Source: Lama guanicoe
Lineage: Eukaryota
Assembly (NCBI GenBank): GCA_013239625.1
Contig: MU053561.1
Location: forward strand, 5,940,439 to 5,982,486
Reading direction: 5' to 3'
DNA: 42,048 bases
The notes beneath the pieces are model-generated. The model saw only the letters and a program-made list of their open reading frames with translations. It made no database searches and was not told where the DNA came from. Shown one piece after another: positions 9,791-40,924 of the stretch (its first letter is position 1; each line of letters begins with the position of its first letter). A program made the translations under genes and the position numbers.

Positions 9791-9974
9791 TTATAGTTCT
9801 CCATGGGCCCTATTCTTGATTTAAACTTTAGACACTGAGGCTCAGAGCAATCCACACAATAAATGACAAATTGGGCAGTCCCAGTAACTACTTTCTTTAT
9901 CTTTCCCTTCATGTATTGTAAGCATCTGCACTTAATGAGAAATAAAGGTAAAAATGATGTAGCCGCTCCCTTAC

Positions 9975-10087
9975 CTCTCTGGATGGGCATGGAACTTCAC
10001 CAGGCTGCTACAGAGCTGTGTCTCTGCTTGTAAGGCCTCATTGAGCTGACTCCATTCATCTACCAGACCTTCCAGCATCAGCAGCAA
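9975..10087 (-). pseudogene. PDE4DIP: PDE4DIP pseudogene fragment, exon c: LLLMLEGLVDEWSQLNEALQAETQLCSSLVKFHAHPE
   Basis: Near-identical to myomegalin LLLMLEGLVDERSRLNEALQAERQLYSSLVKFHAHPE as recalled; canonical cag acceptor and gtaag donor; 113 nt. Confidence 0.9.
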
Positions 10088-10427
10088 CTGAGGGGAAAAA
10101 AACAAAAGCAATGCACAAATGGAGACTTGAGATGTGAAGTCACAGATAATCCTGAGAAAGAGACCCAGACAATGTATTCGCATGTACTATGACTCAAAAA
10201 GCTCATGATCTTATCACTGACTTAACTTTTCTATAGTGTGTTACAGTTTTCAAATCAGTGTCATGTTATCTTTTTTTTTTTTATCCTTAAAGCTCTATAA
10301 GGGAGAATTCAAAATGGGAGCAAGAAGAAAGAGGAGAGAAAAGCCAGAAGCACAGGAAAGAGAGAGGAGTAGAAGAGAAAGCAAGGGAGGGCACGAGGGA
10401 AACATACACTAGGACTTATGAGTACTC

Positions 10428-10500
10428 TTCATTCATTCAAAAAATAGTTATTGAGCACCTTCTATGTGCTAGACTCTGTTCTAGGGATAAGCTGACTATC
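10428..10500. mobile_element. L2 3'-end fragment
   Basis: 'ttcattcattcaa...ttattgagcaccttctatgtgctag' is the typical L2 terminus. Confidence 0.55.
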
Positions 10501-10976
10501 TTATATTAAGCTTACTATCTATATTATATAGATAAGCGGAAACAAAAGACATTCATCAGTCACAGACACGTGTCACTGTGAGCTATAACAGCGCTCTTAA
10601 GAAGATGAGCTATGATAGTGCACAACCAGCAGAGATGTGTTTAAGTGAACTAGCAGAGCAAAAAGCCAGACTGGAGTGAGGTGAGTAGTCAGTAAGAGAG
10701 ACGATACTGGAGACACGGTGGGGGTGGAATACAGGCTAACAGATATTTTTAGCAAGTTTGGCACTGAAGAAAGGTCAGATATGGGGCGGTAGCTATGAAG
10801 GAGCTACGCATGTTAGAAAGGAGCATGTGTGGCTGCTATGGACCAAGGCAGGGAACTTGAGGGCACAGATTGTCTGTGAAATTCCACCAACAGATACCTT
10901 CATAAGTAACTAGATTGACAGATTTTTCCATTGTTTATTTCACAGTAAAAATAAGGTTTGTGCTCCAATAACTTAC

Positions 10977-11114
10977 TTCTTGTCTTCGGTTTCTGGAAGC
11001 TTCCTGACCCTGTGATTCTACTGAAGCAACTTTTTCACGAAGAAGTAAGACTTCTTGGGTCAGGCGTTCCATAGCTGGTATGTGTTCAGGATCAACCAGC
11101 TGCATCTGCAGGTC
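10977..11114 (-). pseudogene. PDE4DIP: PDE4DIP pseudogene fragment, exon b: DLQMQLVDPEHIPAMERLTQEVLLLREKVASVESQGQEASRNRRQE
   Basis: 138 nt, phase 0-0, tag/gtaag splice sites; matches myomegalin DLQMQLVDPEDIPAMERLTQEVLLLREKVASVESQGQE. Confidence 0.92.
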
Positions 11115-11437
11115 CTAAAAGTCAAAAAACAAGTACAGTAAGAAAAATGCTATTCAGCAGAGGAACAAAGGAACAAATGCCCCTGAAACAGTCTGCTCTA
11201 CTTTTAAATGGGATATTAACAAGCCATATGAAGGTAATGATATCTTCTTTATGACATCTTAGCAAGTCTGATGTAAGTCAAAGAGAATATGGTAACATCA
11301 AGAGGCTCAGACTAACAGCGCATCAAGAAATAAGCATTGGCCATGGGACTCAGCGTATTCACACGTTGTCTGAAGATGCCCTACAGGTATTCTGAGCTGT
11401 AATCATGCCCAGTGGTCTTTAAAAAACTCTGAAAGAC

Positions 11438-11554
11438 CTTGATGAGGTCTTCTCTAATCTGCATGTTCCTGGTCAGGGACTCCATATCAGAGGCCTACAC
11501 CTGCATCTCTACTTCCTGCACAGCCATCTTGGACTGGAGGGCAGAAAGTTCCAA
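11438..11554 (-). pseudogene. PDE4DIP: PDE4DIP pseudogene fragment, exon a: LELSALQSKMAVQEVEMQV*ASDMESLTRNMQIREDLIK
   Basis: 117 nt, cag acceptor and gt donor; in-frame TAG at 11495-11497 where myomegalin has Q. Confidence 0.9.
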
Positions 11555-12269
11555 CTGTGGAGAAAAGAAATCCTGGAGTCAGGATTTCCTGGGTAGAGGA
11601 AACAGTATGTGCCACAGTTATGTTTTAACACTGAAGCAAATGTTTTTTCGTATCATGTCACTATCAGCCAGTAATGCAAATAAAAGCCAGAACATGAACA
11701 GTGTGCTACTGGGTCGGATCAATAAGCCACACTCTGTGGTACCCAAGGCTGCTTTACGGGAAGCTGTAACGTGGTTTTAATGATGCCCTCCATTTCTGTT
11801 AGCACTATAAAACATACCAAATTTGTTTAATTAATGAATGTGTTATACTTCCTAAAAAATGAGTTACCATGAGCAGATGCACGAATAGAAGCTTTTCTTT
11901 ATTTAAGTATTTTGGCTAATAGATGAAAAAATGATAGAACAGCTCCATTTTTGCAGCCTTAATGAATTAATGGCTACAGGCTTCAACCGTCAATAGTTAA
12001 CATCACAAGAGATCACCAAATACCACACCCCTCCTGGTGGAAGAACACACCACCACCAATGAAGAAGTCCTATCAAATTTAACACTGTAGGCCCTAAATT
12101 TTCTATGTTGTATCTTCCATCTCTCCTCAACAGAGAATGACAACCAAATGATTTTATTATGACAAATTTTACTAAACATCATGATAATTACCACAGTTGC
12201 CAGTATTTACTAGGGGCTTACTGTGTTCCAGGTCCTAATAAACACTCTGCATAGATTTAACCCTTTTAA

Positions 12270-12700
12270 CAAACCTAGTGACCTGCTCCTGCCTACCTCT
12301 CCAACTTCAATACCTATAGCATTTTCCACCTCATTCATGAATCTCTAGGCACGCCAGACTTTTCCCGTTAGGAATACCAGACTTTGTTTTGACTCAGAGC
12401 CTTTGCACCTACTATTCCCTCTGCCTGAAATATCTTCCCCAGCGTTGCCTCCTTTCCATCCCCCAGCCTCAGCTTACACGTCATCTGCTCAGAGAAGCCT
12501 TCTCTGGCCACTCTATCTCCCATAGGCCTCATCCAAGTTACTTTCTAATATTTCCCTCATATTGCTTATGCCAATCAGTAATTGTATTATGTATCTTCTG
12601 CTACCTCCCCACTAGAAATTAATTACATGGGGTCAAGGACTCTATTGATCTGGTTCCCTACTCATCCCCAACACTTGCCCTGTCTTAGAGAAGGTCCTCA
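12270..12700. mobile_element. L2-like fragment
   Basis: 'cctttgcacctactattccctctgcctgaaatatcttcccc...tcagagaagccttctctg...ctcccccactagaa' resembles the L2 3' region. Confidence 0.55.
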
Positions 12701-12729
12701 CAGGGACGGACGATCATACGGTTACAAGA

Positions 12730-23900: not shown

Positions 23901-26900
23901 CAGGTACAGTGGCCCCAGGCTCTGATAGCACTGAGCCTCTCATGCAAAGTTTCCTGGCTCATAAGAGACTCCTCACCTCCACTAGGAATGATTTGAACAA
24001 GTGTCTTGTGTCCATGTTTCATTTTGGGGACTCTGACAGGACCAGGACTGGCTGAGTGGGAGGACCGAGGGGAAATGCACAGGCTGGAGGTCACAGTGTT
24101 TCAACTGTCTGCTTCCCCCCGATGGATGGTAGCCTTCGGGGCGAGACAGCATCCCCCAGGGTTAAAGCACAGAAAGGAAGCTGTGACTGGGCATAGCTTG
24201 TGGGAGCAGAAAGAGCCCTGGGCTTTGCATCAAAGTGGCCAGACTCCAGCCTGAGTGCTGTCTTTCCTGACTGTGAGCGAGTGATTGGATTTTCCTATTT
24301 CAGTGTCTGTTTCCTCTTGTGTAAAATGGGTCAAATAATCTGTTGATGGTGCTGCAGTGATTAATCTGGGAATGTCAATGAAACAGCTCAGAAAAAGGGA
24401 AGCCCTGCACTTTGTAGGGTTGCATTGGGCACTTAATGTTGTCGAACTTGTGTTGGGAAATTTGTTTTACTGGACCCTTCCCATGGGGAGAACTTCCCTT
24501 GGTAACGCTCAGGGGCCATAGGAAGGTCCCATGATGTGGGCAGATGGAGGCATGTGGGACGGGGTTGTTTCCCTCTTTTAGACAAAGCAGGGGCCGTATG
24601 GGAGAGCGGTAAGGGGTGCAGAGCATGTGTCTAGGGAGAAACTAGTGGCCGGATGGATGAAAGGGTTGTATAGGTTGAGATGGCAGGTGGACACTTGTAC
24701 AGTGATATAGGGAACAGAAGACCATTTCAATGTTCGCCCCTTGTCAGGCAGAGGGGTCATGACGGCCATCCAGCAGTTTGGGGTCACGCTGAATGATGGA
24801 TCAGACATCTGGACCAGGCCAATCACTTAAAGACAGTGCCCTAGAACTTCAGCACCGCACTGACACATACGTAGATATTTATGTCCCTGTGGCCATACAA
24901 CCATTAGGATTGCAGTTGGTGAAGTGGGGAAAAGCTGACTGGATATTTCTGAATTTGTTTGCAGAAATTCATGAAGATGAGGAAGATGAACTAGAAGAAA
25001 CACTCACCCCCAGGTAATCATGAAGTCTTAGGAGCCGGTAATGGGTAGGTAAAGTATGGAGAGGGTAGAAGAAAGATGAACACATGAGGGCGAGAGAGTC
25101 TCATGTACCAGATGTGAGAAAAGAAGACCTGCAGAGTGCATTGATTGACTTCAATCCAAGCAACAGGGAAGGGGCCCTTTAACTTGGCTGTCTGTTGTCT
25201 CTGTGGCACTTGTAGGTATGGCCCAAGGTAATGTACCACCTTTAGGGTTCCCTGCACACACAGAGAGGATATGCATACTGTCCTAAATGAACACCAAGAC
25301 GAGATAAAGAACTGTTTGTACACAGTTCTTAGGTGCTTGTTAGGAAGGAGGATAGCAATGGAATCAGTAAAGAAGTAACTCAAAGAATTAACCACCAATA
25401 GAAGTGTCTAGGAAAAATTTTAGTTGCCACATGACACGACTATGAGAAAGGCTTTAGAGGAATTCTGTTCATAAATATAAGACATAATGTCTCTGAGGCT
25501 CTACAGTACCTTAACGCTTATACTCACTTGGCTACATTAACTTAAACTGCATATGATAGAGGCACATGGCAGTAGCACGTGCTGTGGCAGTTCACTGGTG
25601 CTTCATGATCATGAAAGGACCACACTGGGATGTTTGGGTCTCATTTCTCATCCCATGTCAAGTGGCCAGTGTACCGAACAACTACGGCTCTCTCCCTCCC
25701 CCTCCCCCTGACAGCCTCACTCTGCTTCACATACAGAAGGAAACTTACTTCCCTCTTTATGAGGACTGATAAGTTTGCATTTCATGAATAGTTCCTATGC
25801 CCTGCAGCAAAATCAGTACCGACTACATGGTGACAGATGCTGATAGTTGAATTTTCTGTCATTCCTTTCCCACCTGGAACAGCATTGAGCAAGAGGAGTT
25901 GGAGGAGGAGTTGCTCCAAGAGTGCCAGGATGAATGTGTTTTGAATCCCTCAGTTCTCCAAGAAGGATCTGACTGCAACCGGCTAGACGGTGAAGGCAAC
26001 TTGCCAATTGATGAAGAGAAAGTCGGCCGTGCTCTGCATGTAGCTGGTGCTTGCTCCCATGTTGCAGAAGATCAAATTCCAGCTGACCTCCCAGGTATCC
26101 TTTCTAGTTTTGTTCCCCACAAACTGTCAAGACTGAAGAAGGTCTTCACCAAAGGTCGACCTTAGTGACACATATTGGTTTACCCAGAGAAAAGGATGGA
26201 CTGTGAAACACGGATATCATATGTACCAGGGAGCCTTGATCCCTTTCTAGGCCCACTTCATGTATCTGTCACCCTGGATGCAAAATCAGGCCATGGGACC
26301 GAAATCAGGGGTGAGAACCTGTCACCCACCTTGGGTGCACATCCACAGGAAGAGTGTGTCAGAGATAGATTGGGTCAACTGTGTCTTCCAAGCTACTGTG
26401 GTCTAATTATTCTTTTTGGACAGTGGCCCTGGCCTATCTTGGCCTGTCCACACACACTGGTAGCTTTGCCTATATGTTAGGTGAAGTGGTGTCTCTGGTT
26501 TCACTGATCTCCGCTGAAGTCTTCACCTACGTGGTGATGCTTTATCTTAGCTATGTAGCCATCAGAATGCCAGGAAAGAACCAAGTGTCCCTTTACCTTG
26601 CTTGGATGTTCTCATTTAGTAAGGCTGGGCTCTGACATTCCCTCCAGCCTTGAATGCCCATTGTTTCTGTGTAGCCCCAAATTTTCTCTTTGATATGAAT
26701 GTTTGTAGCATTCATCTAGTCTCAAGCAGAGTTCCTCCATAGCATCAGCAACCACATAATCTGATGGGACAAACCAATATTGTAGAAAGAATTCTAGAAG
26801 CAACTCAGCTGGTTTCTAAGACCTTTTGTGAAAATATACTATTAACTCGAAANNNNNNNNNNNNNNNNNNNNNNNNNNNNNNNNNNNNNNNNNNNNNNNN

Positions 26901-29900
26901 NNNNNNNNNNNNNNNNNNNNNNNNNNNNNNNNNNNNNNNNNNNNNNNNNNNNNNNNNNNNNNNNNNNNNNNNNNNNNNNNNNNNNNNNNNNNNNNNNNNN
27001 NNNNNNNNNNNNNNNNNNNNNNNNNNNNNNNNNNNNNNNNNNNNNNNNNNNNNNNNNNNNNNNNNNNNNNNNNNNNNNNNNNNNNNNNNNNNNNNNNNNN
27101 NNNNNNNNNNNNNNNNNNNNNNNNNNNNNNNNNNNNNNNNNNNNNNNNNNNNNNNNNNNNNNNNNNNNNNNNNNNNNNNNNNNNNNNNNNNNNNNNNNNN
27201 NNNNNNNNNNNNNNNNNNNNNNNNNNNNNNNNNNNNNNNNNNNNNNNNNNNNNNNNNNNNNNNNNNNNNNNNNNNNNNNNNNNNNNNNNNNNNNNNNNNN
27301 NNNNNNNNNNNNNNNNNNNNNNNNTCAGTATGGTTATGAATATTTGACTGCAAGTGAAGAAAGCAGGAAAAAAATCAAAATTATATCAAAATATTGAGAT
27401 AATACTCCTTGAAGTTAGAAGTTATGTGTCTGTAATTTCCCCAAAAGCTCTTTTTGCTTAGACACTGCCTGTGTAGTTCAATGCAATGTATGCAAACAGT
27501 GGGAGCCAAGATTTTAGTGCTGTGTGATTGCTGAGCGTCATGCCTGGAGCACACAGAGAGAGTCCAAGTGCCCCTTGAACAGCTGGTTGCATGGCCAGTG
27601 CTCGGAGCACCTGCTGCTGTCTCCCTCTCCCACCCCGTGGTGGCCACACAGTGCTTGACACATAGGAGGATAGTTATTTACCTCTTTAAGGGGATTGCCC
27701 TTTGGCTTTCTGTGTCCAATCCCAACGCCTCCCCTATCAAAACCAGCTAGGACAGCTTGGTGTCTGATCCTCTTAGATTAATTTTCTATCATCCCCTTTC
27801 CACCTGGCACAGCATGGAGCTCGAGGCGTTTGAGAAGGAGGATGTGCTCCAAGAGTCCCAGGATGAATGTGTTTTGAATCCCTCAGTTCTCCAAGAAGGA
27901 CCTGACTGCAACCAGCTAGACAGTGAAGGCAACTTGCCATTTGATGAAGAGAAAGTCAGCCATGCTACGGATGTAGCTGGTGCTTACTCCCATGTTGCAG
28001 AAGATCAAATTCCTACTGACCTCCCAGGTAGCCTTTGTAGTTTTGTTCCCCACACACTGTCTAGACTAAAGAAGGTCTTCACCGAAGGTCGACCTTAGTG
28101 ACATATATTGGTTCAATCCAGAGAAAAGGATGGATTGTGAAACACAGACATCATTTGGGCCAGGGAGCCTTGATCCTTTTCTAGGCCCACTTCATGTATC
28201 TGTCACCCTGGATGCAAAGTCAGGCCATGGGACCAAAATCAGGGGTGAGAACCTGTCACCCACCTTGGGTGGACATCCACAGGAAGAGTCTGTCAGAGAT
28301 AGTTTGGGTCAACTGTGTCTTCCAAGCTACTGTGGTCTAATTATTCTTTTTGGACAGTGGCCCTGGCCTATCTTGGCCTGTCCACACACACTGGTAGCTT
28401 TGCCTATATGTTAGGTGAAGTGGTGTCTCTGGTTTCACTGATCTCCGCTGAAGTCTTCATCTACGTGATGATGCTTAATCTTAGCTATGTAGCCGTCAGA
28501 AAGTCAGGAAAGAACCAAGTGTCCCTTTACCTTGCTTGGATGTTCTCATGTAGTAAGGCTGGGCTCTGACATTCCCTCCAGCCTTGAATGCCCATTGTTT
28601 CTGTGTAGCCCCAAATTTTCTCTTTGATATGAACGTTTGTAGCATTCATCTAGTCTCAAGCAGAGTTCCTCCATAGCATCAGCAACCACATAATCTGATG
28701 GGACAAACCAATATTGTAGAAAGAATTCTAGAAGCAACTCAGCTGGTTTCTTAGATCTTTTGGAAAATATACTATTAACTCGAAATATTCAGCAGATGGG
28801 ATATTAGGAGAAAGCTCAAGCAGATCAGCCAGAGAATTTCCCCCAAGCACTTGGAAGCAGTCCTGTCTAATTCTCCTAAGACTTAAGTGTTCTGAAATAC
28901 TTTTCCTAAAATATTCTGTTGTTTCCCTGAGAATATTAATGTCCTTTTGGTACCTGTGTTCAGTGAGTTGGCGTGTGTGAGGTATGATTTGTTTATTGTG
29001 ACCTGCTGTCTCTGAATTTCTTACCAGAAAATCAGAACGAGTGTGACGAAGCAGCTGGACAAGAGCCAGTGTCTGCCAGGTAATTCTGAAGATTTCCGGG
29101 CTGTTCATGTCAGTGGTGACACCAAAAGACCTCAGATGTGGGAAAAGAGAACGTGCTGAACATGACTCTTTCATCCATTCACTCAACAGCCAACTAGGCA
29201 CCTGAAAAATGTTGTTTCTTTCCATTGTGTCAGTTGTGTGTGTCTGAATTTTTGAATGTCTCAAGTTTAGTCCTGGACCTTAATTTGACCACGGTGCACT
29301 AGCCAGACTTGGGGGTCCCTTAGTCAGCTGCTGCCCCCTCTGTGGATAAAGGCAGTGAAAGATGCACATATGTTTTGAGCCAGTTTGGCCTCAGTATGGT
29401 GATGAGTATTTGACTGCAAGTGAGGAAACATAAAAAAAAAAATCAAAATTGTATCAAAATATTGAGATAATACTCCTTGAAGTTAGAAGTTACATGTCTG
29501 TAATTCCTCCAAAAGCTGTATTTGCTTGAGCACTGTCTGTATTTTTTAACGCAAAGTATGCATAATGTGGGAGCCAAGATTTTAGTCGTCTGTGTTTGCT
29601 GGCCGTCATGCCTGGAGCACACAGGGAGAGTCCAAGTGCCCCTTGAACTGCTGGTTGCATGGTCAGTGCTCGGAGCACCGGCTGCTCTCTCCCTCTCCCA
29701 CCCCACGGTGGCCACACTGTGCATGACACATAGGAGAATAGTTATTTCCCTCTTTAAGGGGACTGCCCCCTGGCTTTTTGTGAACCGTATCTCTGCTTTA
29801 CATCAATATGCTGACTCTGTCTCTAATCGTCTGAGTTTAATTTCCTGTCATCCCTTTCCCACCTGGCACAGCATGGATCTACTGGAGGTTCAGAATGACG

Positions 29901-32900
29901 ACGTGCTCCAGGAGTCCCAGGATGAATGTGTTTTGGCGCCTTCCATTCACCAGGAAGGTTCTGACTGCTATGAGAAGTACAGTGATGGAAAGTTTGCATT
30001 TCCTGAAGAGAAAGTGATATGTGCTCTGGAGGTAGCCTGTGGTTCCTCGCATGTTAAAGCAGATGAAATTGGAGCTGACTTCCCAGGTAGTCTGCATGAT
30101 CTTTGCTCCGCACAATCTGTCTTGTCTCGGAGAATTCCCTTTCATGTGTAGACTATATGCATAAATATTGTTTTGAATCAGGCCCAACAATTCCCTTTAT
30201 TTAATTACTTATTTACTTATTTATTTGCAGTATAGTCAGTTTACAATGTGTCAGTTTTTGGGTTACAGCATAATATTTCAGTCCTACATCTATATACGTA
30301 TATTCCCTTTTACATTCTTTTCCATTGTCGGTTACTACAAGATACTTAAAGTAGTTCCCAGTCCTGTATAGAAGAAATTTGTTGTTTTTCTTTTATATAC
30401 ATAATAGTTAATATTTGCACATCTCAAATTCCCAATTTATCCCTTCCCAACCCCTTTGTCTCCAATAACCATAGTTTCTTTCCTATGTCTGTGAGTTTCT
30501 CTCTGTTTTGTAGAGAACTTCATTAGTGTCTTCTTTCTTTTTTAGATCCCACACGTGCGTGATATCATGTGTTCCTTCTCTTTCTCTTTCTGGCTTACTT
30601 CACTTAGAATGACCATCTCCAGATTCATCCTTGTTGCTGCAAATGGCCCTAATTTTATTCTTTTGTATGGCTCAGTAGTATTCCATTGTATAAATATACC
30701 AGTTTCTTTATCCAGCCATCTGTGGATAGACATTAAGGTTGTTTCCATGTCTTGGCTATTGTATACAGCGCTGCTATTAACATTGGGGTGCGTATGTCTT
30801 TTCAAATTAGACTTCCCTCTGGATGTATGCCCAGGAGTGAGATTCCTGGATCATATGGTAAGTCTCTTTTTCGTTTTTTGAGGAATATCCATACTTTTGT
30901 CTGTAATGTCTGCACCAACTACATGCCCAGCAATAGTGTAGGAGGGTTCCCATTACTCCACACCCTTTCCAGCATTTAGGGTTTATGAACTTTTAATAAA
31001 CTCCATTCTGACTGATGTGAGGTGATACCTCATTGTAATTTTGATTTGCATTCCTCTGGTAGTTAGCAGTATTCAGCATTTTTTCATGTACCTATTGGCC
31101 ATTTGTGTGCCTTCCGTGAAGAATTCCTTTTTAGGTCCTGTGGCCATGTTTGGTTTTTTCTTGTTGTTGTTATTAAGCTGTATATGCTGTTTATATAGTC
31201 TGGAAATAAACCTTTGTCAACTGTATCATGTGCAAATATTTTCTCCCATTCTGTAAGTTGTTGTTTTGTTTTGCTGATGGTTCCCTTTGCTGTGTAAAAA
31301 GCTTTTAAGTTTAATTACATCCCATTTGTTAACTTTTGCTTTTATTTCTATTGCCTGAGTAGACTGCCCCAGGAGAACATTGCTAAGATTTATGTCAAAA
31401 ATGTTTCAGCTATGTTTTCTTCTCGGAGGTTTATCGTGTCTTGTCATATATCTAAGTGATTAAGCCATTGTGAGTTTATTTTTGTTTATAGTGTGATGGA
31501 GTGTCCTCACTTCATTGCTGTATGTGTGGCTGTCCAGTTTCCCCAACACCACTTGCTGAAGAGCCTGTCTTTTCTCCATTGTATGTTCTTGCCTTCTTTG
31601 TTGAAGATGAAGTGACTGTAATTCTGTGGGTTTACTTCTGGGCTCTCTATTCTGTTCCATACAATTACCTTTAAAGTAACACATTCCCTGAGTTCGTAAA
31701 CTTGGCTCAATTCCTAGGCATGTTTGTCGCACTGGCAAATCACTGGACCCATCACGGTCCTGCCAGACTCCCATATAGCTCTCCAATTGTGTCATAGGAA
31801 GTAGCTTTCCGGTCTCCTAATTTTGAATGAATCTCTTATCTTGCATTTAATGCTCTAATTTTCATTCCTAAGCAATGTGCCTGAGATTCTATACCTGTCT
31901 GAGGCTGTTGACAGTTTAGTTTATGTCTTTGGAGATGTCACTCCTTTGGTTGTTTCTGTCAACGCAAGTCTGTCTCCTTCCATTTGTCTTATCTTATCCA
32001 GAGGCTTCTGAAACCAGAACAGAAGCACCAATGCCATCTTTGGTGTGTTTCTCTGAAGCAAGGCAGGGTCCTGGAACACCCAGCCTTATGAATGCCCACT
32101 CTTTCTTGGTGGCACTGAAGAGTGTTTAGACTATGTTTAGATTCTGCTCATCAGTCTAATGTCAATGGAGAATGCATCTACCCTAATAAGAGACAGCATT
32201 TCAGATTGAAAAATCCTGAATATTTGAGCAGCTTTCTAGGAGGTAGCTCGGCAGTCCCTCAGGATCTGTGGGTAAAAGGATGAGGTTACTGTTTGCCTAG
32301 ACTCAGGACATAGTGTGCGGACATCCTGTCATATTATGAAGACATGTCTAGGGTCTCAAGAAGCAAATCCAGTGCCTTCTTATGAGGTTCTATCTACGGC
32401 CTCCTGGAAGATTTCTCCCACAGTACCCTGTTATCACATTGCACACATTGCCAAAGTGCTGATTTTGGCATGGTTTTGCTCATACGTAAATGAGTTTTGC
32501 CCAGTGTGACTGTCCTCTTAATTCATTTACAGAAAACCAAAATGATCAAGATGGGTTGAAAGGAGCAGAGCCAGTTATCTGCAGGTAATTTTGAATATTT
32601 GGTCACTGTTGATGAAATGTGACTTCTGCAGTCCCCTAATCCAGGAAACAGCAGGAATGCAAGCGTATGATCCACTTTGCCAACCAGGAGTATCTTTTTG
32701 GTGATGTTTTCTGCTTACATTTTGATACATATATTGTTTCCTATTTCTCATTAACTTCTCAAGTGTACACCCAATTCAGTTGACCAGGTGATCTATGATA
32801 CAGTGATTTCTGTGCACTCATTTGTTCTCTCTGGTGTCATTTACAGAGTGAGATGCAAATCTGCTTTCGGCCTGTTTTGTCTTAGCATGTTGACATGTGT

Positions 32901-35900
32901 TTCATAGCAAGAAGTGGACACAAACAGTGATATAATAATATCATGCCACCATAAAGAGAGAAAGAGGCCTTAGCGGCATGAGATCTCTGGGACACTAGGG
33001 TGCCCCCAGTAGTATACACTTAATCTCCATGTAGCAGTCAGTGCACCTTAAATGAAAGGGTGAAAACCACTCTTACATGAGTCTATGTTATGGGTCATGA
33101 CTGCAGTATAGAGATAATCAGTCTCTTTCTTCATCAGCTGTTATTTGGCCAGAGCACTGAGCACCCCCTCTCCTTTCTGTCTCCTGCTCCTCAAAAACAC
33201 ACACTCTGTCTCACCAAAAAAGTCAGTTTTTTCTGCTTAAAGGATCACCCTTTGGCTTCCTTCACTGCTCCCTTAAACAGTTCATCTATGCTGAACACTG
33301 GAATTTGACACAACACTGTAAAATGATTATGAATCAATAAAAAATTTTAAAAAAAAAAAGAAACAGTTCATCTAAAGCAGATAGGACTCTAGATTTCTGA
33401 TTGGTATTAGGTTAATCTTCGGTCTCCCTACCCGCCAGGCTCAGCACAGAGCTGCCGCAGATAGTAGAGGATGACATCCCACGGCACTCAGTGGAGGAGT
33501 ACTATTTGACTTACTTAGCTCTTCCTGACCTGTCAGACTCCTTCTGGCCTTATAGGAGCGCCGCCATCTACTCATTTGAGGGATTGGAACTCTCTTATGC
33601 TCGGGATGTAACCAGTGAGTACTCTCTTATCGATGTGATAAACCTCCAACTGCACTGCCAGGTAGAGCTGGTGTCTTTTGCGCTTCACACCTCTGGCGGT
33701 GCCGAGCTATGGCGTCCCTGTGGGCAGACCCTATACATTTATATTGAGAAGGTTTAGGTTCTAGAATTCAGTTTTAAGCACAGACATCATGCGGGCCAGG
33801 GAACTGTGCTCTCTATCCCAGGTCAAGCCTATGTGTTGGGTCCCAAGATAGGTCACTGAACCGAAGGCAAGTGTGACAATGTCACTCACCTCTGTGCAGT
33901 TGTACAGAGGTGTCTTTTTTCATGATTCCCATCAAATGTCTTTTCTACTTATAAGGTTCTCATGTTCATACCCCTAAAATATCCCTGGAATTTCTTTCCT
34001 TCAAAAGATGTTGACAGTGTTAACTACACCTCTGGATTTGTTGTTTCCCTGGGGTCACTGCTGTCATCCCCAGTGTCCGTCTCCTCTAAGTGGAGGAGCC
34101 ACCTGAACACCAGGACACAAACATCCCTACTATCACCTTGCATGTATCTTTCCATGAAGTGCGGCTGACCCCAGCATTTCCCCACTCCATGAAGGGCTGA
34201 TGGTTCTGTTTAGCACAAAGCTCATTTTCATGCTAGGGTTTGTAGATTCCAACCATTATTTTGTTTTCAGTGTATAAAGTCTGCTAAACCAGCCAGCATA
34301 CGGTGAGGGAAGGCTGAATATTACAGTATTCTTTTTAGAATGCAGATGGGCTATTCCACAGACTATGTGGGGAAAAGATACATTTCACTCCTGACTCAGA
34401 CCTGGAAAAGGTGATTGTTGTGAGGAGATACTGCCCAGGGGTCAAGAAAGCAAACCCAGGCAGGTCCAGAAGACGCAACGTGAGGTCTCCAGGGAATATT
34501 ATTCTTACAGTATCCTCCTGTGCCACTGGTGATACTTTTTTCCCCGGGATAGTATTGGATACCTAACTATTGACATATGTAGGGGGATCTGCTTAATGTT
34601 TCTTGCCCTGTCTGAATTGATCCATAGAAAATCATCCTGTTGTTGAGGAAGAAGAGGAACAAGACCATATATATTCCAGGTAATTCTGAAGACTCAGGGG
34701 TCTTTTGTTTTCTTTCTGCTATCTATCTGTCTGTCTGTCTATCTATCTATCTGTCTATCTATCTGTCATCTATTTATTTATGTATTTCAAAGTATAGTCA
34801 GTTTACAATGTTGTGTCAATTTCTGGTCTACAGCATAATGAAGAATCATGGCTCTTAATTTAATGTTGATGTATGGTGAGGTCAGATCCAGGGAAATGAG
34901 AAACTGCTGAATATGCCTAATTCTTCCATTCAGACAACCACAGTGTGTCCCTTTAACAATGCTGTCTATGTTAACTGTACGTTTATAAGCCCCTTTGATA
35001 ATCTCTCTCCAATGGAGTAACTGCATTCAGTTGATGCAGGGGTGCTAACCTGTCCGGGATTTCTCGGACTCTCCTTCTCTGTTTTTATTATAAGCAGCAT
35101 AGGATGCATTTCTGCCTTTCACTCTTTGTTCTTAGCACTGACAAGTATTTCATAACAAGAAAACTACTTAGAAAACCAAAATTCATATCACATCTCAGTG
35201 GTAGAGAAAAGGCATTGGAGACACAGGATTATGCTGCCAGAGTCTTGTTCCCTCAGCTGTTGCATGTAAATTTCAACAAAACTCATGCAAGAGTTGAAGC
35301 CTCCCTTGTAGTTTCTGAGTGTGTGTCCTGACTAATGTGTACTGAGGTGGTTCCGTCTCCTTCGTCCTGAGCTCTTTTTCTGGTCAGTGCTGGGACCACC
35401 TCCTGCTCTGTCTGTCTCCTATTTCCATTGTAAGCACACTCTGGCCCCAGATGGAGGAAGATTGTTATATCTCGCTTTGTGGAGAATGTCCATTTGTTTT
35501 CTGCGACCAGTCCCTTAACACTCCCATCAAACCCAGCTAGGACCCTGTGTTCGCTCATCCGTTTTGTTTAATCCTCAGTGCACCTGACCCCAGAAGGCTC
35601 AGTAGTGAGCAGCCGGTGGTAGAAGAGAATGAAGGCCCACAGGACTCACTGGATGAATGTTATTTGACCAGTTCGGTTGGCCATGACCTGTCAGACTCCT
35701 GTAGGCCTGACAGAGGTGCCTCATTCCCATGGGACCAACAGGGAGTCTTCTCAGCGCTTGCTGTAGATGGTGAGTACTCCCCCGAATAGAGCACACGGCT
35801 CCTAGTGGGTCCCCAGTTATCCTCACAGACTTTGTAGCCAATGAACTGTATACACTACGAGAGTGATTTCTGTAAACAGGCCCTGAGACTTGTGTTCTTT

Positions 35901-38900
35901 TGAATCAGGCTGTGGGATTTAATTTGCAAAAGGCATCATGTGGGTAAGACAACTTTCCTTTCTCCTCATCCCAGGACGCCCTGTGACACCTGGACCGCCC
36001 GCACCAGTGCAGGCTGTTGGTATCAAGTCAGGCTAGAGAGGGGAAGTGAGATGTGTGGGATGTGGCCCGGCCCTGCCAGGCCATCATTCAGCATGGGCAG
36101 GACAGGCCAACCTCCCCACACGGATGGGCTGAGGTGAATGAACGGGACACATCAATGATCCTCGGGTCCCTCCTATTTCTGGGCTCTGATCATGACTTGT
36201 GAACAGTGTGGACAGCTGTGACTCCAGCAGTAGGGCTGCAGGGGACCTGCTCTTTTGCCCCATCCGCCCTGACCAGGGAGAAGTACTGTAGGCACAGCAC
36301 AAGCACTTGATCTTTAAGGACAACTTCAGATTTCATTGGAGGCTTTTCCCTACTTTCCTAAGTAATGCTATTGGGCATTCCTTGTGATGTTTGATAAACT
36401 ATTTTGCCTTTTCCCATGCAAATGCAGAGAATATTGAGCATAGTTTAATAAAAGCCATTAGTTGGGAAAAGAGAGATAAAACTAAATGATGAAATTAAGA
36501 TGTGATATTTTAAAATACTTTAAGTCTGTGATTCAAAATAGCCTTTGAGGGTGGGTTTACTGGTTTTGTTCATTGTTTCACAGAGTAAAGTTTTTAATTT
36601 CAGAGGTGTTACCCTTCAGACCATGTGAATTATCAATAAATCTTATTAAGTATCCTAAAATGCAGTGATTAATGATGAAGAAACTCTGCCTGCAGGAAAT
36701 GGGAAGGGCACACGAGGCTGAGAGCAGTGCTTAGGGAAAAAGCCCAGGAAGCTCTACAAGGCGCAGGTGCAGGGCTGGGGTCAGGAGGGGCAGCCTGCGT
36801 CCAGGGAGGATTTGTTCAAGGGGGTTGTGGGAAGTGATGCTGCTGAAGAAAGAGGGGCCGGAGGGAGCAGGAGTGTCAAGGCAAGGTGAGGATTTGAGTT
36901 CATGTAGGGAGGTTGAGGAGGACAAGTTTCCCCAAGCTGAGTAAGACTGGTGAGACCGCTGCTAGTGTGGAGAGACAGGATCAGCGGAAGCCTTTAGAAG
37001 GAGGTCGGATGAATCACTGATGAGAGTGAGACAGAGTGCGCTCTCTGGAAGACGACGCGGTCACAGACACAGGAGAGACACGTTTAAGAAACAGTTCAAC
37101 AAAGTTTGTTGAGCAGGAGGGTCTCCAGGGGGTAGTGAGGGGGGAGCCACACAGCAATGTGCAGCAGGCCCCGTGGGCCGTGACCCCACCTGAGCCTGAC
37201 CTGGACTGGATGAGCTACTTGAGCTCTTTGGTTAGCCCACTCTCTGAGAATATGAACTCACTTCACAGTAGAATTGTAAACATGGGTGATTAGGAGCAGT
37301 GCCTGGTGCCCCTGGAGGGGGGTGTAATATAAGGAATGTGCACTGTGTCATCTCCCTGAAGAACCAGACATCCTGATTCTGTAGCCCTTCTGGACACTGA
37401 GCTTCCAGCAAGGCCCTCAGACCTCAGCTACACTACTTACAGGTGCCAGTACCCACCAGCCCACCCAGGACACATGTAGCCATGGGACGTATCCCTGTGT
37501 GGTGGGTGGACGGGCTGTAAAAACACACGGGGAAGGGAGTTGAAAAGGCTCCAGAAGTGGGAAGAGTTCTCATAACTTGGTCCATGTGCTATAGCCCCCA
37601 AGTCCCATTTCTAGTGGAATTTGCAGCCTTTGGGCCCTACTTCTCTTGTTATATCTTTATTCTAATTAGACATCAACAATTCCTCGTCCTCCCTTCCCTG
37701 GGTCCTGGCCAGAACCTTGTCTCTAGGCTACAGGGAAGGGTCGCTAATAACTGAGTCATGGTCGTGACCTCACCTGCCATCCAGTACCCTCTGGACCCAA
37801 GTGGGTGATTTTTGATCTCAGCGACGTTGCTGCCAGGCACCTGCCATCTCAGCGTCCCCAGGCACAGCCTTCAAAATGACATCTCCGTCATGCCCATGAT
37901 GTCTGCCTCTGTTGTCTGGCTGATTGGGTGGTCTCCCTGATAGGCAGGAACAGCAGAAATGGGTGTCGTGGGAGGGGCTGACAAAGGGAAAGTTGCATTG
38001 GTCCTACTGAACTGTCCTCTCCTTTCAGCTGACTCCTGGGAGGACCGTCCCCAAGGGCCTCTGAGTTTCCAAGGGTCAGAGATGCAAGCTTCACAAGCAC
38101 ACCTGCAGACAAGCTCCCAGGTGACCCATCACCTGCAGCTGCAGCAGGACCAGCAGTTTGACTGTGGTGACGGCATCGTCAGGCTCGGCCTTCCCTCCAC
38201 CGTGTGGGGCTGCACAGCCAACACTGAGTTTGGAGACCAAGGGCTGCCCCTGCAAGGTAAGAAAGAAACGGGGAGTAGGAAGCTCTAGTCCATGAGCTGG
38301 TTGTGCCAGAGCTGGGGGTTGAGGAAACAGTGGGGCCTCTGCCATGCTCCTTTCAGGTCCACTCGAAATCCCCAACGCTCTAACAGAGGGAAGTGAGCAA
38401 GAGCCGCAGATTTAGGGCCAGCTCTGCCCCAGGTCCTGGGTTTGCAAATTCCTGGTTCTTTAACAGAACCAGGTTATTTATCTTGTGAGGTATTCCCTTC
38501 TCGTTTCCCTTATCTGACCACAGGGAAGTTAAATCTACCTTCCGTGGTTGTTGGGAGTGTTAAGAAACATAGTTCCCAGGGTCCGTGATTCGGTAAAACC
38601 TGCGTCAGCACACCTGTGACTGTGTGATGTCTACCCGTGTATCTTGCTGGTGATGTAACACTTACACAATGATTGCACGTGCATTGTCTCAGCTGAAGTG
38701 CAGGAATTTTGATGGTCTCCACTTTCTCTAGACCCTGTCTTCCCTTGCTTTCTCAGAATGGCACGCTTGCCAGAGTTCTCTTCTCCTCACCCATCCTCAA
38801 GCCAGTTTTCCCCCGTTACGTGCTCTCAGTGCGTTAGTAATGTTTAGTAGCAGTGTGAAAACTGCCCACACACTTCAATGTCCTGTTGACTTTTCACATG

Positions 38901-40418
38901 GAGGTAATTTTTCTGTTTTTAGCCCTTTATTTAAAATAAAGAACCACCTTCATAGATAAGGTGAGCCACTCAGTTTCTTCTATGATGCTCCATTTAATTC
39001 GTCCTCTCCGCTCATCTCCATGGCCATCTCCTCGGTTTTCTTATCATGATCCGACTCTTCTCTGATTTTCTTCAATGAGCTTTCATACCCTCACATGCAT
39101 TTCATCTGGGACGTATTCATCCTTACCCTCTACTGCTCTCAGTATCTTCACCTGGAGACTGGGGCCGCGTGGTGCCCATCTGTCAGGCGATCGCCTCATC
39201 TAAGAAATGAGGATAGCGGAGGTGAGAGAAGAAGGGTCACCACTGGCCACTGAGCAGAGATCCCATGGGAAGTGCTCAGCGGGTGTTAGGGATGCGTGGC
39301 CCTGACAAGTGCCATTAGCCCTTGTGGTATTTCATTGTCTTGCCTTCCCTCTAGTCTCTTTTTCTTGACCTTGGCTTCCCACATTCTTGGCCAGGACTCA
39401 GCCCCACTGGCTAGTCACTCTCTCTCCTGCACACTTACCCCAGAGGCCTGAGTCTGAATCCAGGCATCACGACAGATTTTGCTGCAAACGCTAGTTTTAA
39501 TGCCCTTTTTTCTCATAATCCCCCGGATCTAATCGTTCATGTTACCACCAGAGCTTCCCTCGCTTATTCTTCTTATCTCTGTTTTTCCTTTGTCAATTTC
39601 AACTCATCAGAGGCTGTTAGAATGATCCATTCAATATCTCAACGCCATCATCCATTGCTTCCCTTGTACACACACACACTTGTGAGTGTTGTATTTTTAT
39701 CACAGCTTCCATGTCTTATTTAGCTTGGGTATGATAAACATTATCTATAGTGTATGTACAAATATATGGGAAGCATATACTGATACACATATGTAAAAAT
39801 TTCCAGTTTGAGACTTCCCCAGTTCTTTCTTTCCTGAGGTTTTCTTTCAACATTGACTTTTCTTACGTTCTGCAGTCCCTTCTGTCCCAATAGTACAGCC
39901 TCTGACTGCCCTGATTGCCTTGCCTTGTCTTTTCTACCTAGGAACTTTGTGTTTTCGTCAATTCTATTTTCCTTAAAGTTTTTTGGCAATGTGAACATGT
40001 TTGCCTCCTGGCAGTCTTACCAGCACTGCACAGTTTGGGGACGGTCAACAAAACAGAAGAATACCGAGGTGTCTCCACTGGCTTCACCTGGCAGGGACGT
40101 TCAGATGGCCTCTCTTGTTCCTGGGCACTTTCCTTAATTGATGTTCCACTTGGCTGGAGGAGTAATTCATTGTCTGATCATGAATAACAATGCATCCTGT
40201 TTTCTGTGGTTTTATCTTTAGAGCTGGGTTTGGATGCTTCCATCGGAATGAAGAGCCCCCCCAAGGTGGAGGGTGAGGGCTCAGCTGCCAGCCAGCATGA
40301 GTGTCAAGTCTCTAGCAACAGTAATGCCTCCAGTGTCCTGAAACAGAAGGTTCTGCGAAGAAAACTGCTGCGCAGCAAGTGGAGAATAGCATGCAGGTTC
40401 CCTGGCCTTCAAGCGTAG
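20756..40418 (+). CDS. NBPF: NBPF4/NBPF6-like neuroblastoma breakpoint family protein, 15 coding exons (one inferred in the gap), about 731 aa, five Olduvai (DUF1220) domains
   Basis: All visible exons have AG/GT sites, matching phases and no stops; exon lengths plus a 52-nt exon in the gap sum to 2196 nt. Confidence 0.92.
22912..23041 (+). CDS. NBPF: NBPF exon 2: KCEEYKDIIESVLGEKLQFRVVKLAEQLAEKLAEKPALADERFR
   Basis: cag/gtaagg, 130 nt, phase 1-2; matches NBPF YEECKDLIK..L...QF...KLAEQL. Confidence 0.92.
23689..23903 (+). CDS. NBPF: NBPF exon 3: EYDTLIRSQARELTQLRQKLRDGREDSVLLIQQLRDVLTHNDLDNNPGQGFREQLTKGRRLAERLARKLSP
   Basis: 215 nt, phase 2-1; NBPF/PDE4DIP coiled-coil exon. Confidence 0.93.
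24965..25013 (+). CDS. NBPF: NBPF acidic small exon: EIHEDEEDELEETLTP
   Basis: 49 nt, cag/gtaatc, phase 1-2. Confidence 0.88.
25883..26094 (+). CDS. NBPF: Olduvai long exon A (CON1-like): IEQEELEEELLQECQDECVLNPS...DQIPADLP
   Basis: 212 nt, phase 2-1, QE..DEC motif. Confidence 0.9.
26853..27324. other. Assembly gap (472 N)
   Basis: Run of n inside the tandem repeat. Confidence 1.
27813..28027 (+). CDS. NBPF: Olduvai long exon B (CON1-like): MELEAFEKEDVLQESQDECVLNPS...DQIPTDLP
   Basis: 215 nt, phase 2-1; paralog of exon A. Confidence 0.9.
29028..29079 (+). CDS. NBPF: Olduvai small exon: ENQNECDEAAGQEPVSA
   Basis: 52 nt (the usual NBPF small-exon size), cag/gtaatt. Confidence 0.88.
29872..30086 (+). 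CDS. NBPF: Olduvai long exon C (CON1-like): MDLLEVQNDDVLQESQDECVLAPS...DEIGADFP
   Basis: 215 nt, phase 2-1. Confidence 0.9.
30200..31660 (-). mobile_element. 5'-truncated L1 (ORF2 C-terminus plus 3' UTR) in an NBPF intron
   Basis: ORF2-like 'WNRIESPEVNP..YSHFIFNK..KNIQWRKDRLFSKWCW'; 13-bp TSD acaattcccttta (30187-30199) / acaattaccttta (31661-31673). Confidence 0.92.
32533..32584 (+). CDS. NBPF: Olduvai small exon: ENQNDQDGLKGAEPVIC
   Basis: 52 nt, cag/gtaatt. Confidence 0.88.
33289..33360 (+). mobile_element. 72-bp L1 3'-end micro-insertion
   Basis: L1 terminus plus aataaa and poly(A); perfect 14-bp TSD aaacagttcatcta (33275-33288 and 33361-33374). Confidence 0.88.
33439..33614 (+). CDS. 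NBPF: Olduvai long exon D: RLSTELPQIVEDDIPRHSVEEYYLTYLALPDLSDSFWPYRSAAIYSFEGLELSYARDVT
   Basis: 176 nt, cag/gtgagt; RLS.EL...L.DS..PYRSA motif of Olduvai exons. Confidence 0.9.
34628..34679 (+). CDS. NBPF: Olduvai small exon: KNHPVVEEEEEQDHIYS
   Basis: 52 nt, tag/gtaatt. Confidence 0.88.
34705..34838 (-). mobile_element. L1 3'-end micro-insertion whose tail became a (TCTR)n microsatellite
   Basis: ATCT/GTCT repeats at ~34719-34772 next to an L1 terminus; 18-bp TSD tgaagactcaggggtctt (34687-34704) / tgaagaatcatggctctt (34839-34856) with 3 mismatches. Confidence 0.8.
35597..35769 (+). CDS. NBPF: Olduvai long exon E: RLSSEQPVVEENEGPQDSLDECYLTSSVGHDLSDSCRPDRGASFPWDQQGVFSALAVD
   Basis: 173 nt (176 with the upstream CAG acceptor); QDSLDECY motif; gtgagt donor. 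Confidence 0.92.
38029..38256 (+). CDS. NBPF: NBPF4/6-type penultimate exon: ADSWEDRPQGPLSFQGSEMQASQAHLQ...GDQGLPLQ
   Basis: 228 nt, phase 1-1; resembles the recalled NBPF4/6 'SEIQASQAQLEPST...LQLDQGFHCGNG' region. Confidence 0.85.
40222..40418 (+). CDS. NBPF: NBPF4/6-type last coding exon: ELGLDASIGMKSPPKVEGE...KVLRRKLLRSKWRIACRFPGLQA*
   Basis: tag acceptor, phase fits; resembles NBPF4/6 'ELVLEPSLGMKNPPQLE...RRRLPFSKWRLAFRFAG'. Confidence 0.87.
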
Positions 40419-40924
40419 GGGACAGAGGTAATCATAGCTAGGCCCTTCCATGCACGTCTTCCCTGTTCCTCCTCATCTAAGATTACACCTGAAACTCCAC
40501 TAGTTTGTCCTCTTTCTTTTTCATTCACTTAACAGTTGATCCTCCCTCTGTCTGCTCTTTCCTGTTTTCCATGGGAGTTGCCACCCTGTCAGGCCCTTCC
40601 ATCCCCACTTCCTGTTTCTACTGTGAACTCTGCTGTGTTCCTGCCACTGCTGCCCTGGTATTCCTTCTCACCTCTACTCCTAGCTACAGGGAAGCCTGGC
40701 CCCGAGGTCCCCCTCATCAGAAGAGCATCATTTAGGCCCCTCAACACGGAGTACTTTGCCTGAAATCACACACTGTCTTGGTTTCATTGCCTTTCTTTCC
40801 CTGCCCTCCCTCCCTCCACTCCACTGCCTCTTCCAGAATCATTGTCTTAATGTTTCACATGCACATGGGTTGGCTTCTGCATAACACACCTAGGACAACA
40901 CTGAGTCCTTGATATCTCCACGTG

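Follow-up and report, generated by a model that had tools for sequence, protein, structure and literature searches.

A 41-kb camelid segmental duplication carrying an NBPF gene and PDE4DIP fragments, most likely re-inserted from a DNA circle

Mosaics at human 1q21 and 1p36 combine PDE4DIP pseudogenes with NBPF, tRNA and U1 genes. NBPF of the non-primate type (NBPF4/6/7) is described as PDE4DIP-derived, with Olduvai exon doublets and 1-4 repeats per gene, and most such genes lie within 0.5 Mb of PDE4DIP; that NBPF is older than primates and arose from PDE4DIP by local duplication is already published (PMC3429928). The 41 genomes given in that account include no camelid. Three further papers (PMC12317402, PMC13028154, PMC4067907), in the parts that bear on the subject, treat PDE4DIP origin and domain counts and offer nothing further relevant. 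Human variant U1 genes are located at 1q12-21 (PMC3561869).

A group of human segmental duplications has been attributed to circular DNA (PMC7450558). As that paper describes them, the copied blocks stand in flipped order on the same strand at a distant acceptor on the same chromosome, with microhomology at the closing junction, small integration scars and breakpoints in interspersed repeats, and some of the duplications contain core-duplicon genes; its main text leaves NBPF, PDE4DIP, 1q21 and tRNA all unmentioned. The circular translocations of KIT in colour-sided cattle (as reported through PMC7450558) are artiodactyl germline duplications with permuted order and microhomology. Circle-mediated cases of about 20-130 kb, in which a circle is cut elsewhere and re-integrated, appear in accounts of eccDNA duplications (PMC7188851) and circle transposition (bioRxiv 10.1101/2022.06.22.497135), and the proposal made there covers ungulates. 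In L1-insertion-mediated deletion, a 5'-truncated L1 joins two target points with no target-site duplication, and most of the deletions reported are <10 kb (bioRxiv 10.1101/2024.12.14.628481).

The copy examined here is a 41-kb insert with an NBPF gene, a tRNA gene and PDE4DIP pieces. It begins within the window (the whole 42,048-nt stretch of Lama guanicoe DNA analysed) and runs past its right end; parts beyond 42048 are given in extended numbering, in which that end is prolonged. The insert reads PDE4DIP piece A, repeat unit with NBPF, PDE4DIP piece B, on a single strand throughout. This order is rotated relative to the donor, which runs from tRNA/U1/NBPF units through the 3' half of PDE4DIP to B and then A, with NBPF and PDE4DIP in the same orientation in donor and copy. 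The donor is spread over several contigs, with a contig break and an N gap of 1.3 kb within the distance from B to A, so that its order is deduced from the exons and the structure of the units instead of being read off a single sequence. By exon order across contigs C1182 and C4613, piece A is followed by one exon, and piece B falls in the intron behind that exon. The copy is non-tandem and lies 5.95 Mb from the source of piece A on the same scaffold, downstream of an MFS transporter gene that we take to be SLC16A1 and some 22 kb from the 3' end of that gene. The 3' flank of the unit (40419..42048, 84-86% identical to C4613 and C3396) continues across a 3.2-kb N gap to 46726 and is followed, in order, by piece B, a young L1 and the right half of an old L1. 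Neither the second PDE4DIP piece nor the split L1s, which have their right-hand parts outside the window, had been noticed in the first-pass annotation.

Piece A (9806..12702, minus strand) contains three exons with introns and is 91% identical to the genome's own PDE4DIP, in agreement with the intron-containing PDE4DIP fragment of the first-pass annotation. Comparison with pig myomegalin placed the exons at about 11429-11557, 10974-11108 and 9975-10090 (minus strand), matching residues 912-1034 at 72-89%; the first exon carries an in-frame stop in this assembly. Pig and beluga proteins covered the region, and bird myomegalin fragments fell short of it. Piece A has one other copy in the genome (G000:C1182:4352-7237), which is the real PDE4DIP gene, at a K2P distance of 0.060. 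Piece B, which is intron only (46718-49029, extended numbering; L031:4670-6981), lies after NBPF outside the window and likewise has one other copy (G000:C4613:83695-86009, 92%, K2P 0.059). Among the genome matches scored, the combination of A and B occurred once, with no third copy of A or B and no second junction between A and the unit. A 243-bp tract (11085..11327) is identical between the relic and PDE4DIP, a length reached by 0 of 5000 shuffles (maximum 190), for which gene conversion and constraint are candidate readings. Two alpaca 'myomegalin-like' models, P0220 and P0221, begin in piece A and splice over the left edge of the insert into the acceptor flank, where their last exon lies (2306..2344, minus strand). 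Being database models, they give this splicing as a prediction; the alpaca proteins contain substitutions specific to the PDE4DIP relic.

To the right of piece A stands the CpG island of a multi-copy tRNA/NBPF unit (12697..14943, CpG observed/expected up to 1.0), with paralogs 75-90% identical on C5731, C4613, C3396, C12522, C9322 and small contigs. Pfam gave no match for two open frames, presumably ZDHHC7, on C12522. The predicted tRNA-Gln(CTG) is present (13224..13295, minus strand, Rfam 59.6 bits); its B box carries T54C, absent from all five paralogs shown, four of which keep the T. The U1 pseudogene was also confirmed, though without an Rfam match: with the genome's own U1 genes as queries, a decayed copy at about 15630..15766 (plus strand) scored 93, against 33.9 ± 3.8 (maximum 52) in 100 shuffles, and reached E=4e-11 in nhmmer. 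It is about 67% identical to U1, has lost its 5' end and is not a full-length functional U1; the same position is occupied in paralogs C4613, C5731, C3396 and C8343, at 72-83% to U1. Compared with the 20 best-scoring U1 loci of the genome, the relic shares flanking homology with none of them, and an origin by DNA duplication of a live U1 locus is therefore not shown. Two tRNA-Asn relics had been proposed, and one of them is supported (18123..18178, minus strand; score 39, where 200 shuffles over 12 kb reached at most 37-38; E=0.022, and E=0.0019 in the better preserved paralog on C4613). The possible relic at 14407..14470 (plus strand) is weak, with a score of 30-34, under the shuffle maximum, a local z of 4.3 and E=0.2. 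Rfam recovered neither the U1 nor the tRNA-Asn relics at the gathering cut-off or at E<=5, so that the genome's own genes were needed as queries. A search of the window for further tRNA relics (Glu, His, Val, Gly, Lys) returned none. The tRNA-Gln island, the U1 relic, the tRNA-Asn relic and the NBPF block together form a multi-copy unit in this genome, whereas the PDE4DIP arrangement is the single one described above. The tRNA and U1 relics are most likely passengers of an older NBPF repeat unit.

The NBPF4/6-type gene occupies 20756..40418 (plus strand), with 14 visible exons and 5 visible Olduvai repeats. Its inner splice sites are all AG/GT, and it is stop-free on both sides of a 472-N gap (26853-27324) that must conceal at least one small exon. 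The description 'intact NBPF' therefore holds for an open gene of 14 exons, but intactness across this gap cannot be shown. Five Olduvai (DUF1220) matches, four above the Pfam cut-off, are arranged in doublets of small and large exons, and the coiled-coil and last exons are homologous to PDE4DIP exons. The predicted protein groups with annotated NBPF proteins and agrees with alpaca protein P0228 at 707 of 713 aligned residues. At exon 3 its identity is 100% to a Vicugna pacos protein, against 93% to proteins of Camelus, which points to a South American camelid and bears out the assignment to a non-primate mammal. Camelid NBPFs formed their own clade in the protein tree (support 100/99). In alpaca, at least four distinct NBPF proteins of 827 aa are nearly identical, and copies may therefore be collapsed in this assembly; the NBPF part is matched by many short contigs at 95-100% identity. 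One NBPF paralog branches outside the primate, horse and artiodactyl NBPF4/6-type proteins and lies within an intact tRNA/U1 cluster, which suggests that the linkage of NBPF with tRNA and U1 may be old. This paralog is 65-80% identical, as opposed to a K2P of 0.06 for the PDE4DIP piece. For NBPF genes, PMC3429928 uses a CM promoter directly upstream as a criterion; upstream and at the start of the present gene, 20276-20479 and 20678-21014 align at 72-73% with a distant paralog on C9322.

The acceptor is an old L1, with its left half at 5070..9769 (minus strand; relatives 71-78% identical) and its right half at about 50836-51510 in extended numbering. For 21 of 24 relatives, the alignment breaks off near 9760-9790 and is taken up again near 50,836. 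One old L1 is thus split in register, which indicates that the acceptor flanks were contiguous before the insertion. The first bases of the insert are a 36-nt piece of a young L1 (9770..9805, minus strand) that continues the 1.8-kb young L1 at the right end of the insert (49030-50832, extended numbering). In 17 of 19 family copies, 26-34 of these 36 nt match directly after the point where the right-hand piece stops (mean 29.3 of 36, versus 11.4 when the true right neighbour is used). A single young L1 thus supplies both ends of the insert as consecutive bases, which would have been adjacent in the intermediate and are not so in today's donor. The left 36 nt had no match in the assembled donor sequence between B and A, where no L1 is present today; a vanished intermediate is therefore required. 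At the end of B the donor reads TTT/AA; the young L1 has a short tail, its 5' end directly adjoins A, and no less than 5.9 kb has been lost. TTT/AA, read here in the donor since the intermediate is gone, may be an L1 endonuclease-type site. Neither L1, nor the insert itself, has a target-site duplication of 10 nt or more.

All six junctions lie in gap-free sequence. The junction between A and the unit (12697..12702), which we infer to have closed the circle, carries CACA microhomology, and all ten paralogs reaching this point continue leftwards with their own shared sequence. A placement of this junction in the 3' end of a tRNA-Asn gene was rejected, as the paralogs have ordinary flank there. 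Microhomology amounts to 4 nt at this junction and 5-6 nt between the unit and B, and the scars at the outer junctions are small. The junction between the unit and B is bridged by one contig of public run X11. That contig was listed in one of four runs, its absence from the other three proves nothing, and this is the one junction with a read-level test. Fourteen runs from seven studies, one of them possibly the source sample, contain 0.70-0.75 of the words of 9810-14900; in the same comparison six RNA runs contain 0.07-0.20.

Three clocks agree on the age of the event. At non-CpG sites, pieces A and B differ from their single source by 0.060 and 0.059 substitutions per site (95% intervals 0.049-0.070), and the young L1 has a K2P distance of 0.058-0.072 to its family. 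The nearest unit paralogs, at the 5' end of the unit, are 0.054-0.068 away. Parts of NBPF have closer paralogs (0.018-0.034), for which later conversion or further copies are needed; the NBPF next to PDE4DIP is 0.11-0.13 away. The distance of only 0.06 substitutions per site between the PDE4DIP piece and its source indicates a camelid age; the copying and re-insertion probably took place 15-25 million years ago.

We consider it most likely, from the arrangement of the sequence, that the cassette is a 41-kb segmental duplication of camelid age that left the donor in the form of a DNA circle and entered the same scaffold again at a distance of 5.95 Mb; its rotated order inside a split old L1 is what points to a circle. 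On this reading, a young L1 would have entered an endonuclease-like site where B ends and become linked to the start of A, with the loss of at least 5.9 kb that included one PDE4DIP exon. The circle would have closed when the end of A was joined, through 4 nt of microhomology, to a point 524 bp downstream of a tRNA-Gln gene, and a further deletion would have joined the unit spacer to B through 5-6 nt of microhomology, with loss of most of the 3' half of PDE4DIP. These three steps may also have followed one another in a different order. The circle would then have opened within the young L1 and been joined into the old L1 with few-base scars and no target-site duplication, resembling end joining or microhomology-mediated replication. 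The NBPF gene apparently remained open and is likely to have undergone further multiplication; none of the genome copies proved to be the exact donor unit. A more elaborate scenario is tentative and, in our view, rather doubtful: a germline circle would have been hit by L1 retrotransposition while extrachromosomal (or freed by an L1 break), carried an intact NBPF to the new site, and there given rise both to the NBPF expansion specific to camelids and to a new spliced transcript that derives from PDE4DIP and is driven by the captured tRNA CpG island.

The camelid pattern fits the published criteria for circle-mediated duplications as presented in PMC7450558, sharing the features listed above for the human cases. 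Unlike the cases described there, the camelid circle opened in a young L1 that is absent from the donor and replaces at least 5.9 kb, and the copy has a second large internal deletion and NBPF as its cargo. The KIT duplications, as reported, are about 0.5 Mb and belong to domestic cattle, whereas the camelid copy is 41 kb, retained, old and confined to one scaffold. The cases presented in PMC7188851 and bioRxiv 10.1101/2022.06.22.497135 rest on block order; in camelids the donor opening and the acceptor are resolved to a few bases. With its lower bound of 5.9 kb, the proposed L1-associated loss resembles the L1-insertion-mediated deletions reported in bioRxiv 10.1101/2024.12.14.628481, but the camelid L1 survives only in the duplicate, where it was later cut in two. 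The camelid NBPF resembles the non-primate-type genes of PMC3429928 in its doublets and its PDE4DIP derivation; it differs in lying about 6 Mb from PDE4DIP, in having at least 5 Olduvai repeats, and in being part of a camelid-specific expansion. The human 1q21/1p36 mosaics share the same ingredients and the same ancestral neighbourhood. Since the camelid event is lineage-specific, the likeness of the two PDE4DIP mosaics is likely convergent. In a literature search with most subscription papers outside its range, we found no account tying a camelid segmental duplication to NBPF, no paper joining a tRNA gene, NBPF, U1 and 1q21 duplication, and none uniting germline eccDNA, L1 retrotransposition and reintegration; searches for NBPF with tRNA and PDE4DIP duplication, or with SLC16A1 (the latter among the matches listed), gave nothing relevant by title.

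The same arrangement could have arisen with no free circle, by a stalled acceptor fork with repeated template switching (MMBIR/FoSTeS) or by a tandem duplication at the donor followed by a move of the stretch spanning its junction. The 4-6 nt inner microhomologies and small outer scars suit replication-based repair, and such scars, according to PMC7450558, cannot separate NHEJ from MMBIR. However, copying would have had to stop on the very base adjoining its start inside the young L1, and neither a second junction of A with the unit nor a third copy of A or B was found; we regard this origin as unlikely. An assembly artefact of a fragmented repeat region is very improbable. N gaps do occur within and just past the unit, and the NBPF part has its many near-identical short contigs, but the junctions are gap-free, A and B differ by 7% from their source, one junction is bridged in a public run, the alpaca proteins share the relic's substitutions, and two independent L1s are split in register.

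The first-pass annotation had proposed that the whole mosaic of PDE4DIP, tRNA, U1 and NBPF is an old eutherian duplication unit common to primates, with tRNA or U1 genes as fragile points setting its boundaries. For the PDE4DIP part the old unit is refuted by dating: A and B differ from their source by 0.06, the L1 that bounds them is of the same age, camelid NBPFs form a clade of their own, and wholesale gene conversion cannot yield a young L1 at both ends. What survives is the block without PDE4DIP, which is multi-copy and, given the deep-branching NBPF in an intact tRNA/U1 cluster, may be an old linkage. The position of the human variant U1 genes also speaks for the shared unit, but as an account of the whole mosaic we give it hardly any credence. 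The proposed role of tRNA and U1 genes as boundaries was not supported by the junctions, none of the six falling inside one and four involving L1. The nearest, between A and the unit, lies at the edge of the tRNA-Gln CpG island and 524 bp downstream of the gene itself, a distance that a random break in a 36-kb unit would reach in about 3% of cases by a rough estimate, and tRNA-rich arrays lie at contig ends, with NBPF copies at two positions. The other five junctions, however, are >3 kb from any tRNA or U1 in the copy, and the donor side of the break between the unit and B is about 4.3 kb from the next tRNA-Gln. One near case among two array breaks, noticed post hoc, is weak evidence, and we think it improbable that these genes set the boundaries.

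The case for fixed, gene-bearing duplications from germline DNA circles has so far been argued mostly from block order. The camelid copy offers few-base resolution at both the donor opening and the acceptor site, dating by three clocks and an open gene aboard, within the scope of one locus in one lineage and of sequence evidence with no function shown. It also separates a possibly old NBPF-tRNA-U1 linkage from PDE4DIP mosaics that arise anew in each lineage. If the reading of a circle combined with an L1 is true, NBPF would be a core duplicon in camelids independently of primates, and the same ancestral neighbourhood would have yielded a 1q21-like mosaic once more. An independent expansion of NBPF and its Olduvai repeats in camelids, if real, would provide a non-primate comparison for claims that link Olduvai number to primate brain size.

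The window, C1182:5940439-5982486, contains the PDE4DIP fragment with introns that the first-pass annotation had described, its three exons at 9975-11557 (minus strand) matching residues 912-1034 of pig myomegalin. Also confirmed were tRNA-Gln(CTG) at 13224-13295 and the U1 pseudogene, a decayed copy at ~15630-15766 with a score of 93 compared to 33.9 ± 3.8 for shuffled sequence (n = 100; E = 4e-11). Of two proposed tRNA-Asn relics, that at 18123-18178 was supported (E = 0.022) and is better preserved in a paralog, while that at 14407-14470 was weak (E = 0.2). The NBPF gene, reported as intact, is open across 14 visible exons with canonical splice sites, but a 472-N gap conceals at least one exon. 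It gave five Olduvai matches, four above cut-off. At exon 3 a Vicugna pacos protein matches with 100% identity and Camelus proteins with 93%, which makes the genome probably that of a South American camelid. At 25663-30122 a 2-kb module, an Olduvai exon doublet, occurs in three tandem copies (69-89% identical), and Olduvai repeat number varies between camelid proteins. The B box of tRNA-Gln carries T54C, while the CpG island around it remains intact (o/e ~1.0).

These parts lie in a ~41-kb insert ordered A-unit-B, where A and B are PDE4DIP pieces and the unit is a tRNA/U1/NBPF block. Piece A (9806-12702) has sharp ends. Genome-wide, among 40 matches scored, a single non-window match spans it, at C1182:4352-7237, 5.95 Mb away, whereas the unit is multi-copy. 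Exons descend contig C1182 from this copy, and C4613 carries those that come next; their order is that of pig and beluga myomegalin, indicating that this copy is the real PDE4DIP gene. Piece A differs from this source by a non-CpG K2P of only 0.060 (0.049-0.069), which does not fit the proposed old eutherian unit with PDE4DIP included. With an assumed yearly substitution rate of ~1.2-2.2 x 10^-9 at each site, its age would be roughly 14-25 million years, much younger than the eutherian radiation. Close orthologous NBPF proteins are present in Camelus and suggest an origin that predates the separation of camels and llamas. Relic and PDE4DIP share 243 identical bp (11085-11327) inside a block that is 7% diverged (0/5000 shuffles); possible readings are recent gene conversion across 6 Mb, a constraint shared by both copies, or an effect of assembly.

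Piece B (46718-49029, numbering extended beyond the window) lies just past the unit spacer and matches C4613:83695-86009, its only other copy among nine candidates (K2P 0.059). This position is the intron after the exon following A, which makes B a neighbour of A in the donor, with 5.9 kb or more between them. Block order is unit...B..A in the donor and A-unit-B in the copy, with strand unchanged. The unit/B junction has 5-6 nt of microhomology and is bridged without differences by a 278-nt contig from public sequencing run X11, the only one of four runs examined to give such a contig.

The unit starts at 12697 and proceeds rightward through the tRNA-Gln CpG island, U1 relic, tRNA-Asn relic, NBPF and spacer. 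Its paralogs, about 72-97% identical, lie on C4613, C3396, C5731, C12522 and small contigs. On C4613 and C3396 the next island follows ~6.5 kb after the NBPF 3' end, which shows that the units are arrayed in tandem; islands also form inverted pairs on C5731 and at the C12522 end, and the array is therefore not purely head-to-tail. C4613 continues from an NBPF unit into the PDE4DIP 3' end, and islands on C12522 lie 21 kb past an AMPK-beta gene (family by Pfam), presumably PRKAB2 from its peptide. We infer from these two contigs that the donor was an array between PRKAB2 and PDE4DIP. Piece A is absent from the unit paralogs; all 10 that reach the A/unit junction, which carries a CACA microhomology, extend left with their own common flank. 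In wild camel, gene model P0025 joins NBPF to a segment that matches 13917-14102 of the window, in the tRNA island, at 90%, suggesting the same tandem unit in Camelus. An intron-containing gene at C12522:8008000-8052000, which we take to be ZDHHC7 (human 16q24), is separated by ~35 kb from the exon of PRKAB2 type (human 1q21); the two frames examined gave no Pfam match. This proximity is possibly a camelid synteny break or a scaffold misjoin beside the array.

An old L1 left of A breaks off near 9769 and continues near 50,836, and 21 of its 24 relatives align in register across the insert. On this alignment evidence the split element is the acceptor site, ~22 kb beyond the point where the coding exons of an MFS transporter end (family by Pfam), presumably SLC16A1 from its peptide. 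A 1.8-kb stretch of a young L1 (49030-50832) separates B from the point where the old L1 resumes, and all 39 non-self matches end where this stretch ends. The 36 bases at the opposite insert end (9770-9805) continue this L1 family: 17 of 19 family copies matched 26-34 of them, and the two others have indels of their own. Averaged over all 19 copies, 29.3 bases matched, as against 11.4 when the true right neighbour was compared. The tail-bearing part lies on the right, whereas insertion into a resident L1 would put it on the left. Together with the 36-base continuation, this indicates that the insert ends were once joined, as a circle opened inside the young L1 would yield. The young L1 differs from its family by 0.058-0.072, which matches A and B in age. 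Where B ends, the donor reads TTT/AA, which we take to be an endonuclease-like site; no L1 is present there today.

The evidence shows a split acceptor, a rotated block order, insert ends that abut, microhomologies and agreeing ages, and we consider circle-mediated copying and re-insertion the probable origin of the insert. An L1 insertion would have joined B to A at the cost of 5.9 kb or more, a size that fits the range of under 10 kb for L1-mediated deletions in the accessible text of bioRxiv 10.1101/2024.12.14.628481. The circle would have closed through end joining, a second deletion would have taken out at least 62 kb (C4613:21510 to 83695), and the circle would then have opened within the young L1 and integrated. 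Scars of a few bases, with no target-site duplication found at the insert, are what this integration would leave. Because this L1 event would remove a PDE4DIP coding exon and the L1 is absent from the donor, we place it on the circle, on an intermediate copy that has since disappeared, or on an allele no longer present.

Template switching, or tandem duplication followed by transposition, appears unlikely to us, but several observations count against the circle. The donor is fragmented over contigs, the exact donor unit is missing, and closer paralogs (0.018-0.034) exist for parts of NBPF. In alpaca, moreover, four or more distinct 827-aa proteins differ by 11-22 residues, and this assembly may therefore have collapsed copies. 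Circle-mediated duplications are known in human, according to the accessible parts of PMC7450558, PMC7188851 and bioRxiv 10.1101/2022.06.22.497135, and in cattle as cited in PMC7450558. The present case is unusually well resolved. Our literature search, thin on subscription papers, turned up no published description of this locus, nor any of L1 entry into a circle in the germline.

The suggestion that tRNA/U1 genes acted as fragile boundaries was not supported: none of six junctions falls inside one, one lies 524 bp from tRNA-Gln and the others >3 kb from any tRNA/U1, and four involve L1. The proposed old linkage may hold in part. Its PDE4DIP component is young, and what remains is the NBPF-tRNA-U1 neighbourhood: C9322 begins with an intact tRNA/U1 cluster (18 tRNA genes, one U1 that is intact and two that are relics), and an NBPF paralog lies inside it. 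The cluster adjoins RGM, arrestin, ankyrin and GPCR genes (families by Pfam), presumably HJV, TXNIP, ANKRD34A and GNRHR2 from their peptides. An old neighbourhood is plausible from this one genome. In a 32-row, 130-column tree (28 of 98 proteins hand-picked for taxon cover, plus four from this genome), camelid NBPFs formed a single clade (100/99), and the C9322 NBPF fell outside the NBPF of primates, beaver, horse and artiodactyls (96/93), its branch being long and its placement unsure. It may represent a second ancient NBPF lineage. The third exon of this divergent gene (C9322:13563-21702) is 77 residues long and PDE4DIP-like. According to the accessible text of PMC3429928, NBPF arose by local duplication from PDE4DIP 100-150 million years ago, and non-primate NBPF lies mostly within 0.5 Mb of PDE4DIP.

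At least four distinct NBPF4-like alpaca proteins of 827 aa (P0013, P0225, P0227, P0228) fall on one contig. They point to a recent expansion of NBPF in camelids, each gene having some six Olduvai-type repeats. Alpaca 'myomegalin-like' models of 87-126 aa use the relic exons (9975-11527, minus strand); the first-exon stop of the window is Gln in two models, and two finish in an acceptor-flank exon at 2306-2344 (minus strand). Their last exon is housed in 1200-2500, which by eye we take to be an LTR-like repeat. A new chimeric transcript may arise from the captured CpG island.
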